A stretch of 60,135 nucleotides of DNA, taken from IMG/VR virus record IMGVR_UViG_3300045988_044599. One strand, given 5' to 3'. A model generated the notes under the pieces. That model was not told where the DNA came from and ran no database searches. It was given only the letters and a program-made list of their open reading frames with translations. Source of the DNA: a virus. Positions 205 to 11,160 of this stretch are shown piece by piece. Numbering within the stretch: the first letter of the stretch is position 1; each line of letters starts with the position of its first letter. Both the position numbers and the translations under genes were made by a program.

Positions 205-1560
205 ATGGCACGCAAAGCAAGAAACGGCATCGTCTACCCATACAAAGTCGAACGGAAAAAGAAGCTGGCCGATGGCACAATCAAGGCTTACCCCAGCTTC
301 GAGTTCAAGATCGACGGGAAGACCTACAGCTGCAAGAAGTACGCCGACGCGAACCGGCGTCTGACCGAACTGCTCCAAGAGCGAGCCAAATTCGGCAGCA
401 CCAGCAACACGTCAGTCACGTTGGGCGCATATTCGGAACAATGGTTGGAACGACGGCAGAGGGATGCAGACCCGAAGACTTTCGCCAACTATCGAACCAT
501 CGTCCGCAAGCATCTGCGCCCATACCATTCGCAGAAAATGGCGAACATGAACGCCGCAGTCTGCGACCGCATCGTAAATGGTCTCACCGTCGCGAAGACC
601 ATCGATGGCAAGAAAATGCACGTGAAGGCCAGTCTCAGCCTCCGCCGCCAGACGCACACCACATTGAACCAGATTTGCAATGCCGCCGTAGCGGATAGGA
701 TTCTCCCCACGAACCCAATGGGTGGCGTCCCCACTCCGAAGGACAAGGACATCAGTCTTGCCGACGAACGCAAGAACGAAACGCACGAGCGTACCGCATT
801 CACCGACGATGAAGCCAAACGCATCCTCCAAGCCGCCAACGAACTAGGCATACGGAACGGCGCGAGGGAATGGTTCAGACTATGCACCGGTATGCGCCCA
901 GGCGAAATCTTGGGGGCTTCACTCCAAGACCTCGAACTGACCACCACGGCAAACGGCATCCCCTACGGCGAATACACCGTCAACTGGAAACTGGAGGAAT
1001 TGAAGAAGGAGCACGGTTGCGGCGAACCAGACCGTAAAGGCGTATACCCGTGCGGATACAAGCGTGGTGCCGCATGTCCGCAATGGCGTTGGCGCATTCC
1101 AGACGGCTTCGACATGATCGAGCTGCAAGGCCGCTGGTGTCTCACCCCGCCGAAATCGAAGCGTGGAAGGAAAGTGCCAATCATTCCAGCATTGGCGCAG
1201 ACACTCGAAGCATACTTGGTGGATACCGCCGAAATACCGAATCCACATGGACTCCTGTTCCGTCATGATGACGGCTCACCCATCGAGCCGGAAGAGGACA
1301 TCGAACAGTTCCGCAAACTGTTGGAAGCGGCGGGAGTACCCAATGCGGAGCATAGGAGCCGTCACGAAACCCGTCATACCGTCGTTACCATCCTCATGTC
1401 AATGGGCGTGGATGTCGGACTGGTCGAGGAAATCGTGGGCCATTCAAGCAGACTCATGGTGGAACATTACCGTCATGCCGGGTTGAAGGAACGGTTGGCC
1501 GCAATGGAAACGATGAACTCCGCATTAGACTTGAAGCAGATAGAACGGGCTGGCGAATAG
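205..1560 (+). CDS. int: tyrosine-family phage integrase
   Basis: 451-aa ORF adjacent to attL. Catalytic signature: R in LCTGMRPGEILG, HETRHT, and GHSSRLMVEHYRH. It has a basic N-terminal arm-binding-like region, and AGGAGG lies upstream of the ATG. Confidence 0.95.
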   Translation: MARKARNGIVYPYKVERKKKLADGTIKAYPSFEFKIDGKTYSCKKYADANRRLTELLQERAKFGSTSNTSVTLGAYSEQWLERRQRDADPKTFANYRTIVRKHLRPYHSQKMANMNAAVCDRIVNGLTVAKTIDGKKMHVKASLSLRRQTHTTLNQICNAAVADRILPTNPMGGVPTPKDKDISLADERKNETHERTAFTDDEAKRILQAANELGIRNGAREWFRLCTGMRPGEILGASLQDLELTTTANGIPYGEYTVNWKLEELKKEHGCGEPDRKGVYPCGYKRGAACPQWRWRIPDGFDMIELQGRWCLTPPKSKRGRKVPIIPALAQTLEAYLVDTAEIPNPHGLLFRHDDGSPIEPEEDIEQFRKLLEAAGVPNAEHRSRHETRHTVVTILMSMGVDVGLVEEIVGHSSRLMVEHYRHAGLKERLAAMETMNSALDLKQIERAGE

Positions 1561-1580
1561 AAGCCCTAAAACGCAGAAAC

Positions 1581-1614
1581 GCCCCTCCCCCAGCGTAATC
1601 GCTGAGAGAGGGGC
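1581..1614. terminator. GC-rich hairpin between convergent int and lysis genes (bidirectional terminator candidate)
   Basis: Outer stem GCCCCTC...GAGGGGC with an inner CAGCG/CGCTG stem. On the minus strand it is followed by GTTTCTGCGTTTT. A perfect palindrome TTCTCTAACAT-C-ATGTTAGAGAA lies at 1658-1680. Confidence 0.5.
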
Positions 1615-1691
1615 AAACTTGTACAGGACGTACTAGTTGGGCATAGTATTCTTACACTTCTCTAACATCATGTTAGAGAAATGAAAGGTTT

Positions 1692-1967
1692 CTACTCGGA
1701 ATACTTTGCCTTCAACTCGCTGACGCCAATCAAAGCGCCAACCAAGACGGCCAGAGCGTTCAACGTGGTCACGATCTGGTCAACGCATGGAAGGTTCCAT
1801 GCTGGGCCGACCACATGCACGAACACAGCCAAAGCGGGCAACGCGATAAGCGCCAACCACTTCAGCACCTTGTACGCTTCGTCCGGCAGGATGTAGTTGT
1901 TTTCTTCGCCTGTTTCTTCCTGCGGCTTTTCGCCGTCATTCTGAGTCTCCTTGACTTCATTGACCAT
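1692..1967 (-). CDS. holin (Dp-1-like, two predicted TM helices)
   Basis: 91 aa, immediately downstream of the endolysin gene. An acidic N-terminus is followed by LKWLALIALPALAVFVHVVGPAW and IVTTLNALAVLVGALIGV. Confidence 0.7.
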   Translation of the reverse strand: MVNEVKETQNDGEKPQEETGEENNYILPDEAYKVLKWLALIALPALAVFVHVVGPAWNLPCVDQIVTTLNALAVLVGALIGVSELKAKYSE

Positions 1968-1978
1968 AATCGGTCTCC

Positions 1979-3241
1979 TTACCAGTAGAGGGTTTCGCCT
2001 GGATAGATCAACGCCGGGTTGCCCGAACGATAACCGTGGATGCTGTACATGTTCACTCTGTAGTATCCGGCGATGCCGCTCAACGTGTCACCGGAGCGGA
2101 CGGTGTAACGGTGAGTGCTGTACGTGTTGCTGACCGGCTGACGTGCGACGCCGGTACCACGACGGCAGACCGTCTCGCCAGCGTAGATGATGTTCGGGTT
2201 GCCCGAACGATAACCTGTGTACTGGTTCCAGCTGCCGCCATTACGTGCAGCGATGGTGCTAAGAGTGTCACCACTCTTGACGGTCACGCAGACGCTACCG
2301 CAGTTCGTGTTGGCCGGAGCGCTCACTGTCGAGCCTCCACCCAAACGCTGGTTCACAATCGCCATCACACGGTCGTAGGCACCGCCAAGAGCCTGACGAC
2401 GCTCGTTGCCATTGCCATACACGCCACGAATCACCTTCGTAGCCATATCGCCGTAGTCCGGCGTAGTAGTCACCTGCGGCTTAACCGGGTCATGACGAAC
2501 CTCGGTCTTGGTCTTGCCACGATCACCATTAGCGATCTTCTGCCAAGCGTCACGCTCACCGAAGAACAGGTTAAGGTCAAGCGGGCCGACACCGTTCAGA
2601 TAGCCGGTAGACGCATACTGCACCATGCCCTCGCCCTTGCTGCCCGCATTCCACGGAGTGGACTGCCAGCCAGTCGCGTTCATCGAAGCGTACTGGGCCT
2701 TCCACAACATGCAGTGGGAGCGCACATCGGACGGAATCTGATACACGGCGCTGTCCTGAACGTATACCATGGGCCACACCTTGGTACGCGAATACACTTG
2801 GTTCACCCACTGGCGCACCCAGTCACCGTTACCCCAAGCTGCGTTGCCGTTGGACTCCCAGTCCAACGCGAGCACGCACTGGCCCACATAGCCGTTGAAC
2901 TGGTTGAGATAATGGTTCACCTCCGCCGTGACGTTGCCACCGTCCGCGTAATGGTAGCCACCGCAAGCCTTACCGGTCTGCCGCGCCCAATCGGTCTGGC
3001 TACGCCAAGACGGATTCACGTAGCCGCCACCCTCCGTGATCTTCACGATGGCCGCGTCAGCGTCCACCACGCGCGTCACATCAGCGGACTGCCAACCTGA
3101 TACGTCGATCACGTTCATGTTCGCGCTGGCGACCGGCGCGACAGCGACGCACAACACCGCAGCCAACGCGGTCAACGGCCTGCCAATATGCCGACGCAGA
3201 CGCTTGTGCTTCGGCTTGCCTTTGTTGTTGAGGATGCCCAC
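1979..3241 (-). CDS. endolysin: signal peptide, GH25 muramidase and two LysM repeats
   Basis: GH25-like NVIDVSGWQ...KITEGGGYVNP...GGYHYA. LysM repeats VTVKSGDTLSTIAARNG..IYAGETV and YTVRSGDTLSGIAGYY..IYPGETL. The ORF track runs to 3388 (TTG), but the GTG at 3241 follows GGAAGGAGAGG and opens a K/R-rich plus hydrophobic leader ending AVAPVASA. Confidence 0.9.
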   Translation of the reverse strand: MGILNNKGKPKHKRLRRHIGRPLTALAAVLCVAVAPVASANMNVIDVSGWQSADVTRVVDADAAIVKITEGGGYVNPSWRSQTDWARQTGKACGGYHYADGGNVTAEVNHYLNQFNGYVGQCVLALDWESNGNAAWGNGDWVRQWVNQVYSRTKVWPMVYVQDSAVYQIPSDVRSHCMLWKAQYASMNATGWQSTPWNAGSKGEGMVQYASTGYLNGVGPLDLNLFFGERDAWQKIANGDRGKTKTEVRHDPVKPQVTTTPDYGDMATKVIRGVYGNGNERRQALGGAYDRVMAIVNQRLGGGSTVSAPANTNCGSVCVTVKSGDTLSTIAARNGGSWNQYTGYRSGNPNIIYAGETVCRRGTGVARQPVSNTYSTHRYTVRSGDTLSGIAGYYRVNMYSIHGYRSGNPALIYPGETLYW

Positions 3242-3278
3242 ATCCTCTCCTTCCCGCCCCAAGTCAAGGGCAAATAGA

Positions 3279-3305
3279 AAAGCCATCCCGAAATTGGATG
3301 GCTTT
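3279..3305 (-). terminator. hairpin with T-rich tail upstream of the endolysin start (attenuator/terminator candidate)
   Basis: AGCCATCC-loop-GGATGGCT stem. The minus-strand RNA continues TTTTCTATTTGCC. Confidence 0.4.
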
Positions 3306-3400
3306 GAAGTGTGAAAATCAATGCCTGTGCGCGCCATGATTGAACATGATGACGAGCGCGAGCAACAGCAGGTATATGCCGCCTGCAATCATGAGACGTG

Positions 3401-3790
3401 TCATTGCCGGTCCTCCAAATATTTTTCGGCGGCAGCAACTATCCAGCATTGCGCGTCCAATTTCTCAAGCTTCGACAATTCGTAGCTGACGGCCTCGCTG
3501 TGGTCGGTGTCCTTGTCGCCGTAAATCAGGCTGATGATCGTGTTTTTTATCGTGTCACGGCACAACTCGTCCATCCGCTCGTCGAATTTCTCGGTGCGTT
3601 CGCCAAGCTGTCGGGTCTTGGCGAAATGCTGGGAAAGTGGACTGTCGTACGGCAACCGTTCCGGCCGCACGTGCGAGTACAGACCGGTCGCCAGCGCATC
3701 CAACGCGCCCGGCCAGACTTTCAGGCCGAGCGTGATGATGGCGCACGCGCCACCCACACCCCCGAAACCGGCTAGAAAATTTTGCAGCAC
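3401..3790 (-). CDS. membrane protein heading the lysis cassette (N-terminal TM; holin/antiholin-like role possible)
   Basis: 129 aa with a GTG start. The N-terminus FLAGFGGVGGACAIITLGLKVW is hydrophobic and the rest is hydrophilic. It lies directly upstream of the lysin and holin genes. Confidence 0.55.
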   Translation of the reverse strand: MLQNFLAGFGGVGGACAIITLGLKVWPGALDALATGLYSHVRPERLPYDSPLSQHFAKTRQLGERTEKFDERMDELCRDTIKNTIISLIYGDKDTDHSEAVSYELSKLEKLDAQCWIVAAAEKYLEDRQ

Positions 3791-3825
3791 ATTACTTCCT
3801 CCAATCGGAAAATGGAAAAGAGATT

Positions 3826-3849
3826 AATCCCGTCGATTTCGACGGGATT
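3826..3849 (-). terminator. perfect hairpin downstream of the RBP-like paralog array
   Basis: AATCCCGTCGA-TT-TCGACGGGATT. The minus-strand RNA continues AATCTCTTTTCCATTTTCC. The 20-nt core ATCCCGTCGATTTCGACGGG recurs at 42239-42258. Confidence 0.5.
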
Positions 3850-3857
3850 TGGAAATG

Positions 3858-4265
3858 TCAGGCACGCGTCATCGTGTCGCCGTCGAACCAGTCAAGGCCG
3901 TACTGCCGCAAGCGGTCCCAATCGTCCTGCGAATACAAGCCGATCCGGTTGACCGTCACTGAAACGCCATTGCCGCCGCTGCAGTGCAGCGAGCAATTGC
4001 TACCGCCCTTGTAGACGCCAGCCAACGTCGTGGAACTTTTATATATCACCTGGCAGCTTTCCAGGTCGAAGGCGTCGCGTCTGTTCGTGTTGAAATCAAC
4101 CGCAATCACACAGCCTTGTTTGATTCCGCGCAATACCGCAGCCCAGACGTCGGCCTGGCCGGTGTAGACGTATTTGCCGTCGCTGTTTTGCTTGCAGTCA
4201 CAATTCCAAGCGACGAGTGGCCGCAAGGCTTTTGGATCGGCATATAGGTTGGTGATGAGGCTCAT
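3858..4265 (-). CDS. small tail-associated (RBP/CBM-like) protein, paralog 3
   Basis: 135 aa. The N-terminus MSLITNLYADPKA and C-terminus WFDGDTMTRA are shared with the neighbouring paralogs. Confidence 0.65.
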   Translation of the reverse strand: MSLITNLYADPKALRPLVAWNCDCKQNSDGKYVYTGQADVWAAVLRGIKQGCVIAVDFNTNRRDAFDLESCQVIYKSSTTLAGVYKGGSNCSLHCSGGNGVSVTVNRIGLYSQDDWDRLRQYGLDWFDGDTMTRA

Positions 4266-4284
4266 GCCATCACCCCCGTAAGGG

Positions 4285-4653
4285 TTAGGCGCGTGGCATC
4301 GTATCCCCGTCGAAATATTCGATGCTGTCGAGCAGGGTCTTGTTCGCCTGGTATTCGTCCCACGTGCAGATGAGCATGTTCGTCACTGTGACGGTCGGAC
4401 TGCCTGACTTGACGTGATAACTCATTGATATCGGATAGGAATTGTTGATGATCATCTTGTAGCTGACACGTTGTCTTGCGTTGATGTCGCCATCCGCTCC
4501 GATTATCGAGATAGTGCCGCCTGTGACGTTCACCTCGACGCTGATCTGATATGTCGCCCCATTCACGCTCGGAAGGGTCGTGATATTCACCCACTTGTCG
4601 GCTTTCAGGGTGATGGTCGAGGATGGGCTCGTGCATAGGTTCGTGACCATCAT
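4285..4653 (-). CDS. small tail-associated (RBP/CBM-like) protein, paralog 2
   Basis: 122 aa. N-terminus MMVTNLCTSPSS, C-terminus YFDGDTMPRA. Confidence 0.65.
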   Translation of the reverse strand: MMVTNLCTSPSSTITLKADKWVNITTLPSVNGATYQISVEVNVTGGTISIIGADGDINARQRVSYKMIINNSYPISMSYHVKSGSPTVTVTNMLICTWDEYQANKTLLDSIEYFDGDTMPRA

Positions 4654-5108
4654 CGGACATCACCCGCCCGACGGACCGTCTTAATCGCGTGGCATCGTGT
4701 CCCCCGAGAAGAAGCCCGGAAGCCCCCCCCGAGCGCCGCGTCATACGTGTCGGCGGCTTCCACGCTCAATTCGCTGATGGCCATACCGGAGGGGATGGCC
4801 AGGCGCGTGTCATTGGCGGTCGGGGTGAAGCGGATCGTATATTTCCCGACCGTCTGGGCACTTGGGTATTCGTCCGTGCTGTCGAAAAAGATGCCGATTG
4901 CTTTATTCGTCGTATCGTTGCTGACGATCCTGAACGTGCACACGTATTCCACGCCGACCTCGCACGCGAAAGGCAGGTCGATGTATTCGCCTCTGGTGTT
5001 GGCCAGCGTGCCACCGGTCATGTACTTCGATATGTCGCCGCCCTTTTTGACGACATGGAAGCCGGTGGGGTCGAACTTTGGGTTCGTCCACAGGTTAATC
5101 CTCTGCAT
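4650..5108 (-). CDS. small tail-associated (RBP/CBM-like) protein, paralog 1; its 3' end is frameshifted at a G8 tract
   Basis: 152 aa in the zero frame, starting MQRINLWTNPKF. After the G8 tract the -1 frame reads GLPGFFSGDTMPRD-stop (TAA at 4681-4683), which restores the family C-terminus. The zero frame instead ends in an unrelated Arg-rich tail at 4650. Confidence 0.65.
   Translation of the reverse strand: MQRINLWTNPKFDPTGFHVVKKGGDISKYMTGGTLANTRGEYIDLPFACEVGVEYVCTFRIVSNDTTNKAIGIFFDSTDEYPSAQTVGKYTIRFTPTANDTRLAIPSGMAISELSVEAADTYDAALGGGFRASSRGTRCHAIKTVRRAGDVR
4723..4730 (-). repeat. homopolymer G8 (C8 on the + strand) inside paralog 1
   Basis: Eight consecutive C at 4723-4730, which are codons 127-129 of the 4650-5108 ORF. 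Confidence 0.95.
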
Positions 5109-5268
5109 TCTCGTCTCCCTTCACGCTTTCGAGCACATCCTTGGGGATCAATTTCATGGCCGCGTTGAGCTGGCTGGTCAGGATTGCGATCTGCTTGGTG
5201 AGAGTGCCGATTTGCGCGGAAAGAGAGTCGATGACGTCGTTCGCGTCGGCTGGAATCTGCTGAGTCAA
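5095..5268 (-). CDS. 57-aa coiled-coil protein (below the ORF-track cutoff)
   Basis: TTG start 5-6 nt after AAAGGAGAC. The product is MTQQIPADANDVIDSLSAQIGTLTKQIAILTSQLNAAMKLIPKDVLESVKGDENAED. Its stop overlaps the ATG of the 4650-5108 ORF. Confidence 0.45.
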   Translation of the reverse strand: MTQQIPADANDVIDSLSAQIGTLTKQIAILTSQLNAAMKLIPKDVLESVKGDENAED

Positions 5269-5291
5269 AATGTCTCCTTTGAAATGCGAAA

Positions 5292-5320
5292 CCCCCGCAA
5301 TCCGTGTGGATTGCAGGGGT
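5292..5320 (-). terminator. rho-independent-type hairpin upstream of the paralog array
   Basis: On the minus strand, CCCCTGCAATCC-ACAC-GGATTGCGGGG (one G.U pair) followed by GTTTCGCATTTC. It lies after the stop at 5342. Confidence 0.5.
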
Positions 5321-5341
5321 TGAAAAAATTGGAATGCTGGA

Positions 5342-5656
5342 TTAGTCGGCGGCGGTCATCGTGTCGATACGAGTCACGGCCTTAAGCTCGTCCAAGGTGA
5401 GGGTGCGTCCGAGATTCGTCTTCACGTCCGTGAGAGTGACGGTCTTGCCGGAATCGTCGAACGTGGCGAGCACGCCACGCTGGTAGTCGCGCCAAGATTC
5501 GGCGGTGCCGTCAGCGCTGGAAAACTCCAATCCCAATCGGCACAGTTCAGCTCGCACCGACTCCTTCGGCGGACGCAAATCAAGCACGCCAGACGGCTCA
5601 GAGGGCGTCACGGCAGTAGTGGTATCGGTAGTGGTCTCAGTGGTCACATCGGCCAT
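5342..5656 (-). CDS. hypothetical tail-region protein (Thr-rich N-terminus, C-terminus ...RIDTMTAAD)
   Basis: The ATG at 5656 is preceded by TAAGGAGATTGATT. The ORF track extends to 5725. The C-terminal DTM motif resembles the paralog tails. Confidence 0.55.
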   Translation of the reverse strand: MADVTTETTTDTTTAVTPSEPSGVLDLRPPKESVRAELCRLGLEFSSADGTAESWRDYQRGVLATFDDSGKTVTLTDVKTNLGRTLTLDELKAVTRIDTMTAAD

Positions 5657-5667
5657 AATCAATCTCC

Positions 5668-6252
5668 TTATTGTTGGTTGTTTTGAGGTCGTGGCATGAG
5701 GGATTGGTAAAATCTCTCCTCGCACTCGTCCAGATTTGATTGACTGGACTCGTCATTGAGGAAATCGTCAAGACCCTCAATGTTTTTGGTCATGCTTGTG
5801 TCAATGCCACTCGACGGCTCCTCATCGGAGTCATCAACGGACAGTGTGGCAATGAGATTCGCGTCCGTCTCATTCGACATGACCGGCAGATTCATGCCCT
5901 CACGCGCCTGATTGCGCGCGGCGGTCAGCGGATCGTCCAACACTTCCCCATCGGCGGCGAGCATGCTCACACTGGTGGCGGAATCCGCCAAAGCCGCCTC
6001 CAACGCCTCGAACGCTCCAGTCCACACGCCCCTGCCGGTCTTCGAATCGTATCGGCTCGTGTCCTCCCTGCCCTGCATGATCGCCGCTACCGCCTCACGG
6101 GTCGAAGCCAATCCGAGCAGCGCCTTCCACGAGACGAGCACGTCGGGCGTGAACACGAAACTGTCCGCTCCGTTTATGGGCGGATTGCAGCGGATAATGC
6201 AAAGCCCACTGTTCTCATCCGTTTCGAAAGTCGCTGACAAGATTTCCTCCAA
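5668..6252 (-). CDS. hypothetical acidic protein downstream of the fibre gene
   Basis: 194-aa ORF abutting the stop of the 1635-aa gene. No motif was recognised. Confidence 0.6.
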   Translation of the reverse strand: MEEILSATFETDENSGLCIIRCNPPINGADSFVFTPDVLVSWKALLGLASTREAVAAIMQGREDTSRYDSKTGRGVWTGAFEALEAALADSATSVSMLAADGEVLDDPLTAARNQAREGMNLPVMSNETDANLIATLSVDDSDEEPSSGIDTSMTKNIEGLDDFLNDESSQSNLDECEERFYQSLMPRPQNNQQ

Positions 6253-9200
6253 TCATTTGACCAAATAAGCCAGGAATTCCGCGTAAACATCCACCGGGCA
6301 AGGCTGGTCGGCGTTATACAGCTTCAATGTGAAGCCGCTCTGACCGCCCGTGTTCATCGGGTGCGCGATGATGCCCGCCCATTGTGAATCCGCGTTCGCG
6401 ACGACGTAATAGTGGCCGTATTTCGTCGGGCTGAACGTGCAATCGACTTGCATGGAAGCGCCGGTCGCAATCTTCGAGCCGGGATTCGGATACCACGCCT
6501 TCCACGCAGCCTGGGCATGGAACGTAAAACGGTTCGTGATGCCGCCAAGATAGCCGCCGAGATACACGTATCCGGTGCCGATGTTCGCGCCGACTCCGAC
6601 CTCGCCGTTCGCGTCTTGCGCTTCGAGCCAGCACTCCGAACCGTTCGCGCTATCGCCGGCCAGAGTGAGGAAAGCGCTGCTTTTCTTGCTCTCGTCCGGC
6701 TCGTCGTAATCCGTGTTCGCCACGGCATGCACTCTGGATGTGACGCCGCCGCTGCCGGTACCGCCTTTCTTGCGCGGCTTCGATCTGAGAGACAGGAACG
6801 CGGCGGGGTCGTTCTTGCTCACGTGTCCGCTCCACAAGTCCAGTTCGCCCATCGCGCCGACCTGATTCGACTGGATGACAGAAGCAATGGCCGGATGCGA
6901 AAAGTAGGCGGTGGACCCGTTGTAAGCCGGGAATTCGATGCCATCACCGGTGAAAGTCTCAGATCCGCCGATGATGTAGGTCTGATAATCCGGACTGATA
7001 CGCACCCTGTGCCCGCTCGTGCGGGTTTGGAACGTGCCGGTCAGCACATTGCTCTTCCCCTCGCCGTCCAGGTAGACGGTGCGGTTGTGATGGCTGTCCC
7101 ACATCTGCAAGGCCGTGCTATTGAGCTTCATGCCGGTGTTCTTGGCCTCGGAGCTCTGGAAGACGGCGCCGGTGAACACGTAGCCTCGGAACTGACCTGC
7201 CGCCACCTTGTCGGACGTGATAGTGCCAGCCGCGATCTTGACAGCCGTCACACTGTTTGCCGCCAGCTTGTCGGCGGTGATCGCTCCGGACACTATCTTC
7301 GAAGCGTTCACCGAGTTCGCCGCGAGCTTGTCCGCGTTAACCGCGTTCGCGGCGAGCTTGTCCGTCGTGATTGCACCGGACACGATGTCGCCCGCCTGAA
7401 TCTTATGGACATTCAACAAGGCCACGGTCATATCCTCCGTGACCTTGAGTTTCGCCGTCGTAACCGAGTTGGCGGCCAGCTTGTCGGTGGTGATGGCGAG
7501 CGAGACGATGTTGCGCGCCTGCACGCTGTCAGCGGCGAGTTTCGCGGCGGTCACCGCATCAGTCACCAGCTTTTCAGTGGTCACGCTGTTTGCTGCGAGC
7601 TTGTCGGTGGTGATGGCATTGGCCTTGACCTTCTCCGCCGTCACGGAGTCGGCGGCAAGATGCTTCGCGGACACCGTCCCAGCAGCGAGGATGTTGTTCG
7701 CCACAAGGTCGAATGGCTCGAAGCGCGTGCCATCCCACGTCAGGACTTCGACCACGCGGTCAGTCAATGGCACGAGCACGGAAGGTGAATTATTCGGAGC
7801 GCCCTGCCAGTAGGTGTAGAAGTCGGCCAAGAGGCTCGGTGAGTTGTTCTTCTCGCCTTTCCACCTCGTCCAATACCTCTGCGTGCGCCACCACATGTCG
7901 CCCGGCTTCAACCCATCATGGGATGGTTCGTCGGGGCCACGGTAGATGAGGTTCTTGCCGTCAGCGGTGGTCTGTGCCTTCTGCGCTGCGGCCTGCGCCT
8001 GATTCGCCTGTGACGCGGCGTTGGCGGCAGCGGTCGAAGCCTTGTCTGCGGTGGACTGCGCGGTCTTGGCCGCATCATTCGCCTTGACCGCCGCGTTCGC
8101 CGCGTCGGTTGCGGCCTTGTCCGTCACCGCCACCCAAGCCGACCCGTTCCACCGTTTCGGCGTGTTCGCACCATTCGTCGTGTCGATCCACAATGTCGTT
8201 GCCTTGCGCATCGACGTATCCGGCGCAGTGGACTGGATCAGCACGTCGGCCTTGCCGTTCGCCACGCCAGCCGCCGCCGCAGCAGCCGTATTCGCCTTCT
8301 GCGCAGCATTGGCCGCGTCCGTGGCGGACTGGGCCGCGCTGTCTGCGGTGGCCTTCGCCTGCGTCGCAACACTCGACGCATTCGCGGCGGTGGCCTTGGC
8401 GTTGGCCGCATCGGTCTTCGCGGTGGAAGCGTCCGATTTGGCGGAAGCCGCGTCGGACTTGGCCGCATTGGCCGAAGCATTGGCCGTGTTCGCCAAAGTC
8501 TCCGCATTGCCGGCGGTCTTCTTGGCGCTTTCGGCGGCGGTCTGGGCGGCATTGGCCGCATCCTTGGCCTGACCTGCGGTCGCGGTGGCACTCTTAGCGG
8601 CGGCGGTAGCCGCGTTGGCGGTATCCTGCGCTGTCTTCGCCGCACCATTGGCCGTATCAGCCGTGCCCTGCGCGTTTTTCGCTGCGGCAGCGGCATTCTC
8701 GGCAGCTTTGCGGGCATCCGTGGTCTTAGCGGCATTATCCGCGATATCCGACTTCGCCTTGGAAATTTCATCCGCGTTCTTCTCGACATCGGCATAGCCG
8801 AGATGGTTCCAATTCGAGCCATCCCAGACAAGCGTATCGATAACGCGGTCGGCCAGCGGCACGAGCACGGAAGGTGAATTATTCGGAGCGCCCTGCCAGT
8901 AGGTGTAGAAGTCGGCCAAGAGGCTCGGTGAGTTGTTCTTCTCGCCTTTCCACCTCGTCCAATACCTCTGCGTCTTGAGCCACAGGTCGCCGACGATGAG
9001 ATTGTCCTTCGGCTCGTCGGGACCACGGAAAGTATGGTTCTTCGAATGGGCTTCGGCATACGCCTGCGCCGCCGACTCCTTCGCCTTCGAAATCTCACCG
9101 TTCGCCGTGGTCAGGTCGCTCTTGGTCTGCGCAATATCCTTCCGAGCCTGAGACAGGTCGGTCTGCGCCTGAGCGAGCGACTTGGACGCCGCGTCGAGAT

Positions 9201-11160
9201 TCGACTTGTTGGCTTGGATGTCCTTCTGGGCCTGCGTCAGCTTCGCCGTATTATCCTTCAACGCCGTCTGATTGTCAGCCAAATCCTTTTGAATCTGCTT
9301 GACCTCATCCGGCGAGACGGCGGAAGCCACGGTCACAGTGGCAATCGCAGACCAGTCAGACTTATTGCCCGCATGATCGACAGCACGAAACGCATAAGTA
9401 TGAGACGTGCCAGCCGTCAAACCAGTAATCACATAATCGCCAATACCAGTCGAAACAGCTGCAATCTCCTTGAAACTACCATTAGTCAAACGTTCGCCAA
9501 GAATGTTCCTGTCCCAGTCAATCGGCATGGAACCACCATCAGCAGTTTTTCCATCCCAATTAACCGAAACCACACCAAACTCAGATGAAAGAATCGGCTT
9601 AGACGGTACAGGAGGAGGAGTCGTATCCTTAGCGACAGTCAACGCGAACACGCTAGACCATTCGCCCATCTGATCTGAATACGATGGGACAGCACGCACT
9701 CGGATAAGAATCTGAACACCACAATCCAAATTCGACCAAGACAACGTGTGCTCGGTTGTAGTACCAGCCGAATGCCACTCATATCCAGTCTTATTCACAC
9801 GATATTCGACCACATACGACGTGATGTCCATAGCAGTGCCATCAGTAGCCAACGTCACATCATCCCAACGGGCGGTCACCATGCCACGCGCATACCCATT
9901 CACATTGATATAAGCGTCGGAATTGGCCGACAGATTCTGCGGAGCCTTCGGCACTCGATGGTCCTTTTCAGGAGCCGGAATCGCACCGGACGCGCCACCC
10001 AAATGAGCACCACCGGTAATACCGTTCATACGCTTCGTCAAACGAACCGAGGAATCATAATTCTTGTCGTTCAGAATCAGCGAAGCCTTGAACCCAGTCG
10101 AGTCGAGTTGCAAAGTGACCTGTTGGACACGGACCTTCTCACGGTTCGCCACTGTAGGCGCGGTAATCCAATCGCCTATCGTGTAATCGACAAGCGGCAG
10201 ACAAGACGCTTCGACCACGTTCACGGATCGCGTGTACTGTCCGCGCACCCTAGCCGCGTTAGCCAACGTCGGTTTGATGAGCTGTTCGGCGGTCTCCTTC
10301 TTGTTCACACCCTGTTGGCTTGAATACAATTCCCAACCGCCCCAAGGCTTCGGGGCGTTCGGATTATCCTGCCGGAAATTAATATTGTCGCCACGTACAA
10401 GGATCGAGGAAGCCAGACCATCGATACTTTCATCGTCAGGAGCTTCGGACACATCCTGAGCAAGCGTCACCACACACGATTTAGACAAGTCACGGCATAT
10501 GGCGACACTATCCGCGTTCCATAACAGCAGTTGCCGGGCATCAGTACGCCAATCGCACAAGCCGTTGTTCACCAGCGAATCCAACACGTCCTGCATTGAA
10601 ATGCCAAGATCATAGTAGATGCTCGGCAGCATGTAGCCCCACTGCTTACCAGCGGAATCAGCACCGGAAGTGAACCGGCTGCAATCGACTTTCACGCCGC
10701 CACGATTCCAATTCTCATCCATGAACGTGCGCATGATCGTGCCAGCGTTCGCGTTCGCGAATTTACGAGTGCCTTTCTCGTCGCCTTTGGTCTCCAATCT
10801 GGACGTGTCCAGATTCAAAGCCTTCTTCAACAGCCACCCGTAGGAAACGCCGGTCAACGACACCGTGTCGGATACGTCCAGAGCATTCCTTGAACGTGAA
10901 GCGATAACAAACCGGCCATTATACGGTTCAATCCAGCGTCCACCATCAGACACTTCCACGGCGATTTCCAAGCCGGTTTCAAGACGCCGGTCAAGAATCT
11001 CACCACGCAAAGCTTTACGCGAATAGCTGACGGTCAAAGCACCTACAGCATCATGAGTGAACGACACAGTATAGGAAGTCGGCTCAGGCAGCAATCCAAG
11101 CTTGCTTCCATTGGCCTGATATGCGACAAGACGAGATTTTAGAGTCTTACCCATAAGCAT
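6253..11160 (-). CDS. tail tip/fibre protein (Tal-like N-terminus, two FN3 domains, Ala-rich coiled coil, repeat rod, C-terminal binding domain)
   Basis: 1635 aa, placed after TMP and Dit. FN3-like segments PKAPQNLSA...RVRAVPSY and PPPVPSKP...FRAVDHAGN. A long A/K/T/D-rich coiled coil. Degenerate 11-residue repeats of the ITTDKLAANSV type map to about 7200-7700. Confidence 0.85.
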   Translation of the reverse strand: MLMGKTLKSRLVAYQANGSKLGLLPEPTSYTVSFTHDAVGALTVSYSRKALRGEILDRRLETGLEIAVEVSDGGRWIEPYNGRFVIASRSRNALDVSDTVSLTGVSYGWLLKKALNLDTSRLETKGDEKGTRKFANANAGTIMRTFMDENWNRGGVKVDCSRFTSGADSAGKQWGYMLPSIYYDLGISMQDVLDSLVNNGLCDWRTDARQLLLWNADSVAICRDLSKSCVVTLAQDVSEAPDDESIDGLASSILVRGDNINFRQDNPNAPKPWGGWELYSSQQGVNKKETAEQLIKPTLANAARVRGQYTRSVNVVEASCLPLVDYTIGDWITAPTVANREKVRVQQVTLQLDSTGFKASLILNDKNYDSSVRLTKRMNGITGGAHLGGASGAIPAPEKDHRVPKAPQNLSANSDAYINVNGYARGMVTARWDDVTLATDGTAMDITSYVVEYRVNKTGYEWHSAGTTTEHTLSWSNLDCGVQILIRVRAVPSYSDQMGEWSSVFALTVAKDTTPPPVPSKPILSSEFGVVSVNWDGKTADGGSMPIDWDRNILGERLTNGSFKEIAAVSTGIGDYVITGLTAGTSHTYAFRAVDHAGNKSDWSAIATVTVASAVSPDEVKQIQKDLADNQTALKDNTAKLTQAQKDIQANKSNLDAASKSLAQAQTDLSQARKDIAQTKSDLTTANGEISKAKESAAQAYAEAHSKNHTFRGPDEPKDNLIVGDLWLKTQRYWTRWKGEKNNSPSLLADFYTYWQGAPNNSPSVLVPLADRVIDTLVWDGSNWNHLGYADVEKNADEISKAKSDIADNAAKTTDARKAAENAAAAAKNAQGTADTANGAAKTAQDTANAATAAAKSATATAGQAKDAANAAQTAAESAKKTAGNAETLANTANASANAAKSDAASAKSDASTAKTDAANAKATAANASSVATQAKATADSAAQSATDAANAAQKANTAAAAAAGVANGKADVLIQSTAPDTSMRKATTLWIDTTNGANTPKRWNGSAWVAVTDKAATDAANAAVKANDAAKTAQSTADKASTAAANAASQANQAQAAAQKAQTTADGKNLIYRGPDEPSHDGLKPGDMWWRTQRYWTRWKGEKNNSPSLLADFYTYWQGAPNNSPSVLVPLTDRVVEVLTWDGTRFEPFDLVANNILAAGTVSAKHLAADSVTAEKVKANAITTDKLAANSVTTEKLVTDAVTAAKLAADSVQARNIVSLAITTDKLAANSVTTAKLKVTEDMTVALLNVHKIQAGDIVSGAITTDKLAANAVNADKLAANSVNASKIVSGAITADKLAANSVTAVKIAAGTITSDKVAAGQFRGYVFTGAVFQSSEAKNTGMKLNSTALQMWDSHHNRTVYLDGEGKSNVLTGTFQTRTSGHRVRISPDYQTYIIGGSETFTGDGIEFPAYNGSTAYFSHPAIASVIQSNQVGAMGELDLWSGHVSKNDPAAFLSLRSKPRKKGGTGSGGVTSRVHAVANTDYDEPDESKKSSAFLTLAGDSANGSECWLEAQDANGEVGVGANIGTGYVYLGGYLGGITNRFTFHAQAAWKAWYPNPGSKIATGASMQVDCTFSPTKYGHYYVVANADSQWAGIIAHPMNTGGQSGFTLKLYNADQPCPVDVYAEFLAYLVK
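7769..7884 (-). repeat. 116-bp perfect direct repeat, copy A (inside the fibre gene)
   Basis: Identical to 8858-8973. Encodes ...YWTRWKGEKNNSPSLLADFYTYWQGAPNNSPSVLVP. Confidence 0.95.
8858..8973 (-). repeat. 116-bp perfect direct repeat, copy B (inside the fibre gene)
   Basis: Identical to 7769-7884. The offset is 1089 bp, which equals 363 codons and is in frame. Confidence 0.95.

Follow-up and report, generated by a model that had tools for sequence, protein, structure and literature searches.

A run of eight G residues (G8), located in the gene that heads a tandem array of tail-region paralogs, is probably a contingency locus, i.e., a hypermutable homopolymer that mediates phase variation, in a temperate phage of Bifidobacterium (adolescentis group). 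The run lies in the IMG/VR record IMGVR_UViG_3300045988_044599, a prophage of which the whole stretch of 60,135 nucleotides (nt) was analysed and is called the window in the following. The interpretation comes from a comparison of the window with related loci, in which the length of the tract sets which of three reading frames follows a Gly-Gly-Gly junction. In frame A (G6, G9 or G12) gene 1 is ON and encodes a protein of 142 amino acids (aa) with the C-terminus ...LPGFFSGDTMPRD. In frame B (G8 or G11), the state of the window, 23 unrelated residues stand in place of the conserved end. Frame C (G7 or G10) leads to a read-through of gene 2 in the wrong frame. A homopolymer within an open reading frame (ORF), a polymorphism among near-identical genomes and a toggled full-length product with a revertible OFF state are among the features by which contingency loci are recognized, and on the sequence comparison these three are combined at this site. 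The array and its alternative frames consist of the following elements:

4650..5108, minus strand: gene 1 in its OFF state (frame B), as present in the window, with 152 aa; its tail of 23 codons is foreign to the family, and the stop is a TGA at 4652-4650.
4723..4730, minus strand: G8 homopolymer, encoding Gly-Gly-Gly at the junction where the variable body of gene 1 meets its conserved tail.
4681..4722, minus strand: conserved tail LPGFFSGDTMPRD with a TAA stop (4681-4683) in frame A, the ON frame; out of frame in the window and reached with G9, G12 or G6.
4262..4722, minus strand: frame C, open for about 152 codons downstream of the tract and reached with G7 or G10; the program-listed ORF covers 4262-4744.
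4285..4653, minus strand: gene 2, a paralog of 122 aa ending in YFDGDTMPRA.
3858..4265, minus strand: gene 3, a paralog of 135 aa ending in WFDGDTMTRA.

An earlier reading of the window from its letters alone (the sequence-only reading) had placed eight G residues on the coding strand of gene 1 (4650-5108) at 4723-4730 and had described tandem small genes with the tails WFDGDTMTRA and YFDGDTMPRA, together with a third copy out of frame. Coordinates, count and tails were correct. In the zero frame the run is followed by FRASSRGTRCHAIKTVRRAGDVR and a stop, and the gene 1 protein ends in ...ALGGGFRASSRGTRCHAIKTVRRAGDVR. The -1 frame reads LPGFFSGDTMPRD up to the TAA at 4681-4683, which is, as had been claimed, the conserved end of the family. 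The tails of the three paralogs form one family of 24-nt direct repeats (D2) at 3858-3881, 4285-4308 and 4681-4704. G8 is the sole homopolymer of at least 7 bases in the window, and its number corresponds to the chance level (1 observed vs 1.01 expected in dinucleotide shuffles). By itself the run is not improbable, thus the evidence has to come from the relatives. The position of the tract, its retention and its length polymorphism in these relatives exceed chance; the run itself does not.

Related loci were gathered from IMG/VR, from metagenome contigs with a pattern spanning the tract, and with the exact gene 2 protein. Tracts from G6 to G12 were present in a first survey of 80 loci. The set of 142 non-redundant loci comprised 57 with G9, 47 with G10, 16 with G8, 11 with G7, 7 with G11, 3 with G12 and one with G6. 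A frame state was assignable for 137 non-redundant loci: 58 in frame A (42 %), 41 in frame B (30 %) and 38 in frame C (28 %). Hence the comparison of orthologues, foreseen in the sequence-only reading, revealed a variation of both tract length and frame state. G9 and G12 gave proteins of 142-143 aa that end in the conserved tail, which is missing from those with G8 and G10. In a protein search two size classes were obtained, 141-143 aa and 151-154 aa, with clusters of both holding hundreds of member sequences; one cluster is named from Bifidobacterium adolescentis. The sole match in the annotated phage collection was MT836445, an unannotated faecal phage contig with 94 % identity, which has GGGGGGCGG at the site and encodes an in-frame protein of 142 aa ending in LPGFFSGDTMPRD. 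The prediction that a tract of 9 or 6 G would restore the conserved end agrees with these natural variants, as G9, G12 and GGGGGGCGG all encode intact proteins of 142-143 aa. A protein-guided scan of the GTDB species-representative genomes retrieved no relative.

Tract lengths differed even between sequences with identical surroundings. Among pairs with no mismatch in 780 flanking nt the length differed in 4 of 11, and the proportion of pairs with different lengths reached a plateau of about 75 % from 6 flank mismatches upwards. Control runs in the same loci (T6, A5 and three of G4-G5) did not vary, except in a single contig at each of two G runs; a further control site, T4/T5, varied, which is explained by a substitution. 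Over 6369 nt, G8 included, the locus L088 (ENA ERZ28575499) does not differ from the window (100 % identity). L091 (GCA_900523075.1) has one mismatch to the window over 6.4 kilobases (kb; 99.97 % identity) and carries G9 in an intact gene 1 of 142 aa, which up to the tract matches the sequence of the window. G8, G9 and G10 were each present in contigs with a coverage of 11x to 108x. On this evidence the tract truly varies in length, and it does so at a much higher rate than point substitutions arise. Several contigs (L110, L117, L165, L162 and L202) have one of their ends in the G tract or at most 25 nt away from it, and L037 stops 15 nt before it. These ends resemble assembly breaks caused by length heterogeneity within a sample, an observation that is only suggestive.

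The conserved tail is retained where it is out of frame: an intact ORF of 12-13 codons, LPGFF..., was present in 78 of 79 OFF loci. Two synonymous versions of the tail exist (TCG GGG GAC ACG vs ACC GGC GAC ACC), each of them in both ON and OFF genomes, which indicates that selection acts in frame A and that switching took place repeatedly on different backgrounds. For the Gly-Gly-Gly junction the codon GGG is used three times, although this is the rarest Gly codon of the phage (7.3 %). The same cassette of tract and tail follows at least four very different bodies (MQRINLW... with 142 aa, MQRINWFPDP... with 165 aa, MQRINWFTNP... and MTVRINWF...). Interrupted tracts that are locked in the ON state have been found twice, as GGGGGGCGG in MT836445 and as GGTGTGGGGGTGGGG in a phage with a single-gene array (P0115 lineage, without gene 2). 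Loss of the run is consequently easy, yet most lineages keep it. With tracts of G6-G12 in about 140 loci, differences between near-isogenic sequences and an intact tail in OFF genomes, the phase variation proposed by the sequence-only reading gained strong support at the level of population genomics.

Between phages the body at position 1 is exchanged, as a comparison of the loci L083-L089 with 4731-5108 of the window revealed; no fewer than four unrelated bodies, 142 to ~166 aa long, occur there. Neither the poly-G tract nor the conserved tail changes along with the body, and the gene 2 protein is identical. The tract is thus located at a boundary of recombination.

The two alternative frames end at defined places. 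The stop of frame A is located 27 nt before gene 2. Frame B has 23 codons, and in the window its TGA (4652-4650) lies inside the ATGATG start of gene 2; this arrangement occurs in 117 of 140 loci, with an equivalent in sister lineages. The sequence-only reading had described this end as an unrelated Arg-rich tail; the sequence was right, but it was missed that the frame ends exactly on the start codon of gene 2, and the third frame, kept open through gene 2, was overlooked. Frame C spans all of gene 2 in its +2 offset, and its TGA (4264-4262) overlaps the ATG of gene 3 (4265-4263) as ATGA. In the structural genes of this phage the +2 offset holds 5.7 stops per 100 codons, and 0.95 % of 123-codon segments are open. 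Synonymous-codon shuffles of gene 2 gave an expectation of about 3 stops and a probability of 0.02 for an open frame. Frame C was open in 53 of 53 distinct gene 2 alleles, which fall into three clusters with 61-82 % nucleotide identity. For 14 control genes of the window, including the gene 1 body and gene 3, the stop counts were about equal to those of the shuffles. At least four further, unrelated families at position 2 are also open, among them a protein of 130-131 aa ending in ...CFDKDTAIY, MRLVNPSAWA... and genes of 145 aa and 125 aa. Each of these has 0 stops vs 2.0-3.4 expected (P(0) of 0.007-0.084), and their frame C reaches the start of the next gene, where it ends in ATGA or GTGA. 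The joint probability of the open frame is ~1e-8 if the families are treated as independent. Frame C was not kept open in L105 and L172, whose arrays end with the following gene. Between allele clusters the amino-acid identity is 34-63 % for frame C vs 44-69 % for gene 2, thus the conserved trait is the openness and not the protein sequence. On these statistics frame C is open beyond chance, and the arrangement of the two alternative frames is statistically robust.

It is conceivable, though doubtful, that the tract acts as a selector with three positions, in which each frame would deliver the terminating ribosomes elsewhere and thereby set which subset of the three competing paralogs decorates the virion. 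The basis of this idea at the sequence level is strong. In frame A, genes 1, 2 and 3 would all be made. Frame B would yield gene 1 without its tail and a translationally coupled gene 2. In frame C, gene 2 would be occluded and the mRNA covered, with gene 3 and the lysis genes still expressed. The simplest idea for the open frame C is that ribosomes coming from gene 1 would pass over the start of gene 2 and shield the mRNA up to a restart at gene 3. As an alternative it may be hypothesized that the frame-C fusion protein of ~280-282 aa is itself functional. An independently initiated overlapping gene in frame C was considered unlikely: the sole conserved ATG is situated inside the Shine-Dalgarno-like GGGTGATG of gene 2, 2 nt after the G-rich core, and the amino-acid sequence is less conserved than that of gene 2. 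The Shine-Dalgarno-like GGGCGGGTGA and the first AUG of gene 2 lie in the arms and the loop of a predicted 8-bp hairpin (4640-4690, minus strand). Such a hairpin would fit a translational coupling; the region folds no better than shuffles. In L201, where the G tract is oriented on the plus strand, a second tract-bearing gene of the position-1 type is located ~0.6-1.0 kb downstream of the first tract. It reads ...STYDAALGGG / YPRFFSGDTMPLG out of frame, follows the 145-aa position-2 gene and precedes another gene of the MMVTNLCT type. Some phages may carry two such switches in one array.

The proteins belong to a small family, as only 57 clusters were recovered when 1.84 billion representative proteins were searched with a profile. 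The members have 120-160 aa and share a conserved start, M..[IV].N....P, a hypervariable middle and the C-terminal F-x-G-D-T-M-P. In an alignment of 27 members with 13-52 % identity, F134, G136 and M139 are invariant and P140 is nearly so. By this alignment the motif lost by the frameshift is the defining feature of the family. Protein databases store gene 1 as proteins of 142-143 aa, 152-154 aa and ~282 aa, and P0238, the representative of the gene 1 family at 50 % identity, is the frame-C read-through form of 282 aa. These divergent entries for one gene are an annotation artefact of the variable tract.

Other explanations for the tract have to be weighed against a contingency locus. The tract may be a neutral mutational hotspot or mark an incipient pseudogene, i.e., a fast-mutating run in a host without indel repair, within a dispensable gene 1 and without adaptive switching. 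A frame distribution close to random (42 %, 30 %, 28 %) speaks for this view, as does the silence of tail genes in lysogens, hence there is no selection on the frame in that state. In relatives a methyltransferase-like gene also contains a variable homopolymer (C7-C9), the second one besides the G tract, which makes variable tracts a general property of the lineage. A neutral origin is nevertheless unlikely, given the intact tail in all but one of the OFF loci, the organised ends of frames B and C and the opening of frame C against expectation. Moreover, the threefold use of the rarest Gly codon was kept across at least four unrelated bodies and ~140 loci despite a synonymous interruption that is easy and occurs naturally.

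In principle, transcription can slip on runs of 8-12 identical bases, and there are indications that each of the three downstream frames is read. A recoding at the level of expression, by -1/+1 ribosomal frameshifting or slippage of the RNA polymerase, would yield the protein with the conserved tail from any tract length. This is improbable since the frame relation is variable: 42 % of the loci are already in frame, and the 28 % with G7 or G10 need the opposite shift of +1. In addition, G GGG GGC is not an efficient heptamer of the X XXY YYZ type, the downstream RNA has a minimum free energy of -37.8 kcal/mol vs a shuffle mean of -39.4 (z = 0.44), and interrupted tracts locked in frame exist. 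The -1 ribosomal slip, which the sequence-only reading had offered next to phase variation, was not supported: programmed -1 frameshifting needs a fixed frame relation and all three relations occur. With the in-frame class being the largest and without stimulatory RNA structure beyond the shuffles, it was rejected as main mechanism. Transcriptional slippage on G8-G12 could blur the three states. That the G8 of the window is a base-calling or assembly error for a true G9, with gene 1 being intact, is highly improbable. Homopolymers are error-prone, low-coverage survey contigs show other spurious-looking frameshifts, and L091, one mismatch away from the window in 6.4 kb, has G9. However, the independently deposited L088, which may share its sample with the window, has G8, and so do 16 non-redundant loci, including contigs at 11x coverage. 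The polymorphism at the population level stands even if the G8 of the window is wrong. A DNA-inversion shufflon of the Rin/Min/Gin type was rejected as well: all three paralogs are on the minus strand, and the integrase (205-1560) is the sole recombinase nearby. Meaningful inverted (crossover) repeats were not detected within 1500-6800, nor was an invertase near the array.

Several observations weigh against a contingency locus. G6, G7 and G12 stem mostly from contigs with less than 10x coverage, and some low-coverage contigs carry other frameshifts in gene 1, thus a part of the length spread may be assembly error or noise. Switching within one phage population is predicted from a comparison between contigs. 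As the C-terminal motif is invariant across the family, proteins made in frame B or C most likely cannot fulfil the role of its members. The three paralogs gave no sequence matches in Pfam, PHROG or, by profile search, PDB. An AlphaFold2 model of an in-frame gene 1 orthologue (alignment of 30 sequences) reached a predicted local distance difference test (pLDDT) score of 55, with a beta-rich core and both termini below 50; for gene 2 the pLDDT was 38. The enrichment of the ON state is mild (42 % vs 33 % random expectation, p = 0.017). Such a mild excess is in line with genes that stay silent in the lysogen and come under selection in lytic spread only; a nearly neutral hotspot within silent prophage genes would agree with it as well.

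The surroundings of the array bear on its putative function. The array and its neighbours are on the minus strand of the prophage, the integrase is on the plus strand:

6253..11160, minus strand: tail protein of 1635 aa; over its N-terminal third it shares ~30 % identity with proteins of Streptomyces and Arthrobacter phages that are annotated as minor tail proteins.
1979..3790, minus strand: lysis region with a small protein of 129 aa (3401-3790) and a GH25/CW_7/LysM endolysin (about 1979-3241).
205..1560, plus strand: tyrosine integrase at the prophage end, the sole recombinase near the array.

Upstream of the array are several small ORFs, followed by the 1635-aa tail protein, an ORF of 297 aa and a tape-measure-sized ORF of 1571 aa. 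The small neighbouring genes had no Pfam or PHROG matches. The array is thus placed in the tail-tip module, downstream of a tape-measure-sized gene and a minor-tail-protein homologue and upstream of the endolysin. Foldseek comparison of the poor gene 1 model with the PDB had as best matches CBM35, CBM4 and receptor-binding domains of binary toxins (E 0.002-0.05, template modelling score ~0.4), and no match at E <= 0.001. From gene context, architecture and these weak fold matches, a receptor-binding accessory protein of the tail tip is a reasonable, putative assignment. The label 'RBP-like' (receptor-binding protein-like) of the sequence-only reading agrees with the location in the tail tip; the fold matches, weak and from a poor model, leave it an inference.

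The 1635-aa tail protein (6253-11160) has an internal duplication of ~75 aa, ...RGPDEP...YWTRWKGEKNNSPSLLADFYTYWQGAPNNSPSVLVPL...DG..., present twice. The two copies are spaced by a long low-complexity stretch rich in Ala, Thr, Asn and Lys. The second variable tract, C7/C8/C9, occurs in related loci only, where it follows the G tract at a distance of ~2.9 kb, close to the integrase end; it is absent from the window. It lies 30 codons into a gene of 260-310 aa with a DNPPF motif (DNA methyltransferase-like), e.g., in L011 (start ~7190) and L006 (start ~7170). C8 (31 loci) results in the full-length protein, C7 (9 loci) and C9 (10 loci) in a truncation at 34-83 aa. The gene varies also in the number of KAAEL repeats.

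For a contingency locus in gene 1 the following mechanism is proposed. Slipped-strand mispairing in DNA replication would add or remove G residues, and the host clade probably lacks MutS/MutL repair, so that such slippage errors would stay uncorrected. NucS acts specifically on transitions (PMC8228993). With NucS limited to transitions and MutS/MutL probably missing, high indel rates at long runs are plausible in this host. The conserved tail most likely docks the variable, possibly glycan-binding, domain onto the tail tip. A population would then be a reversible mix of virions with and without the gene 1 paralog, a bet-hedging on adsorption or host range.

The closest precedent are the poly-G tracts of Fletchervirus. 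In these Campylobacter phages the receptor-binding genes carry hypermutable poly-G tracts with a length of 7-11 bases, a finding attributed to Sorensen et al. (2021, Cell Rep 35:109214; covered in bioRxiv 10.1101/2025.10.21.683753 and cited in PMC12823448). Both systems have a G run inside a tail or host-recognition gene of a phage, where frame shifts create ON/OFF variants that are read as bet-hedging on adsorption. Here, however, the phage is temperate, its host is a Gram-positive gut actinobacterium, and the system is known from sequence alone. The tract resides at the 3' junction with a short conserved tail rather than in a large receptor-binding protein, and its gene heads a tandem paralog array. 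Furthermore, each of the two OFF frames reaches the start codon of one of the two genes that follow and ends there, one frame being open through a whole gene; this arrangement of the alternative frames is unusual for a phage contingency locus. In T2, T4 and other lytic phages, polymerase slippage at short homopolymers in ORFs causes reversible frameshifts, at rates that exceed the basal mutation rate by far (Gomez, Barrick and Waters, bioRxiv 10.1101/2025.10.21.683753). Those loci are mostly runs of six or more bases in all gene classes, studied by experiments within single lysates, whereas the present case concerns a much longer run (G8-G12) in a prophage and population genomics across metagenomes.

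Prophages of Bifidobacterium breve and B. longum possess the Rin shufflon, a tyrosine invertase acting on 11-bp rix sites with C-terminal cassettes in both orientations (Mavrich et al. 2018, PMC6109161). The host genus, the position between tail and lysis genes and the presumed purpose, a variation of the receptor-binding variant on the virion, are the same. Unlike Rin, the array described here is on one strand, has a homopolymer as variable element, and has neither invertase nor inverted crossover repeats. The 7C tract in glpK of Mycobacterium tuberculosis is an example of reversible indels in G/C runs in a clade without MutS/MutL repair. Such switches of Actinobacteria affect chromosomal metabolic genes and have no downstream frame architecture, whereas here a tail-region gene of a phage is concerned. 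In the literature that was searched, such a tract was not reported for prophages of Bifidobacterium or other actinobacteria; the one diversifier described there is the Rin shufflon.

A practical consequence is that gene callers and databases hold one gene as three 'different' proteins (142, 152 and 282 aa). The open third frame, which ends on the start of the gene after next, suggests how one tract could control several genes via translational coupling. Bacteria of the Bifidobacterium adolescentis group are abundant commensals of the human gut, and their phages are almost uncultured. If the interpretation is true, a second host-recognition diversifier, with a mechanism unlike that of the Rin shufflon, would be present in bifidobacterial prophages, represented by well over 100 independent gut-metagenome contigs, and phage contingency loci would extend from lytic Campylobacter phages and coliphages to temperate actinobacteriophages.

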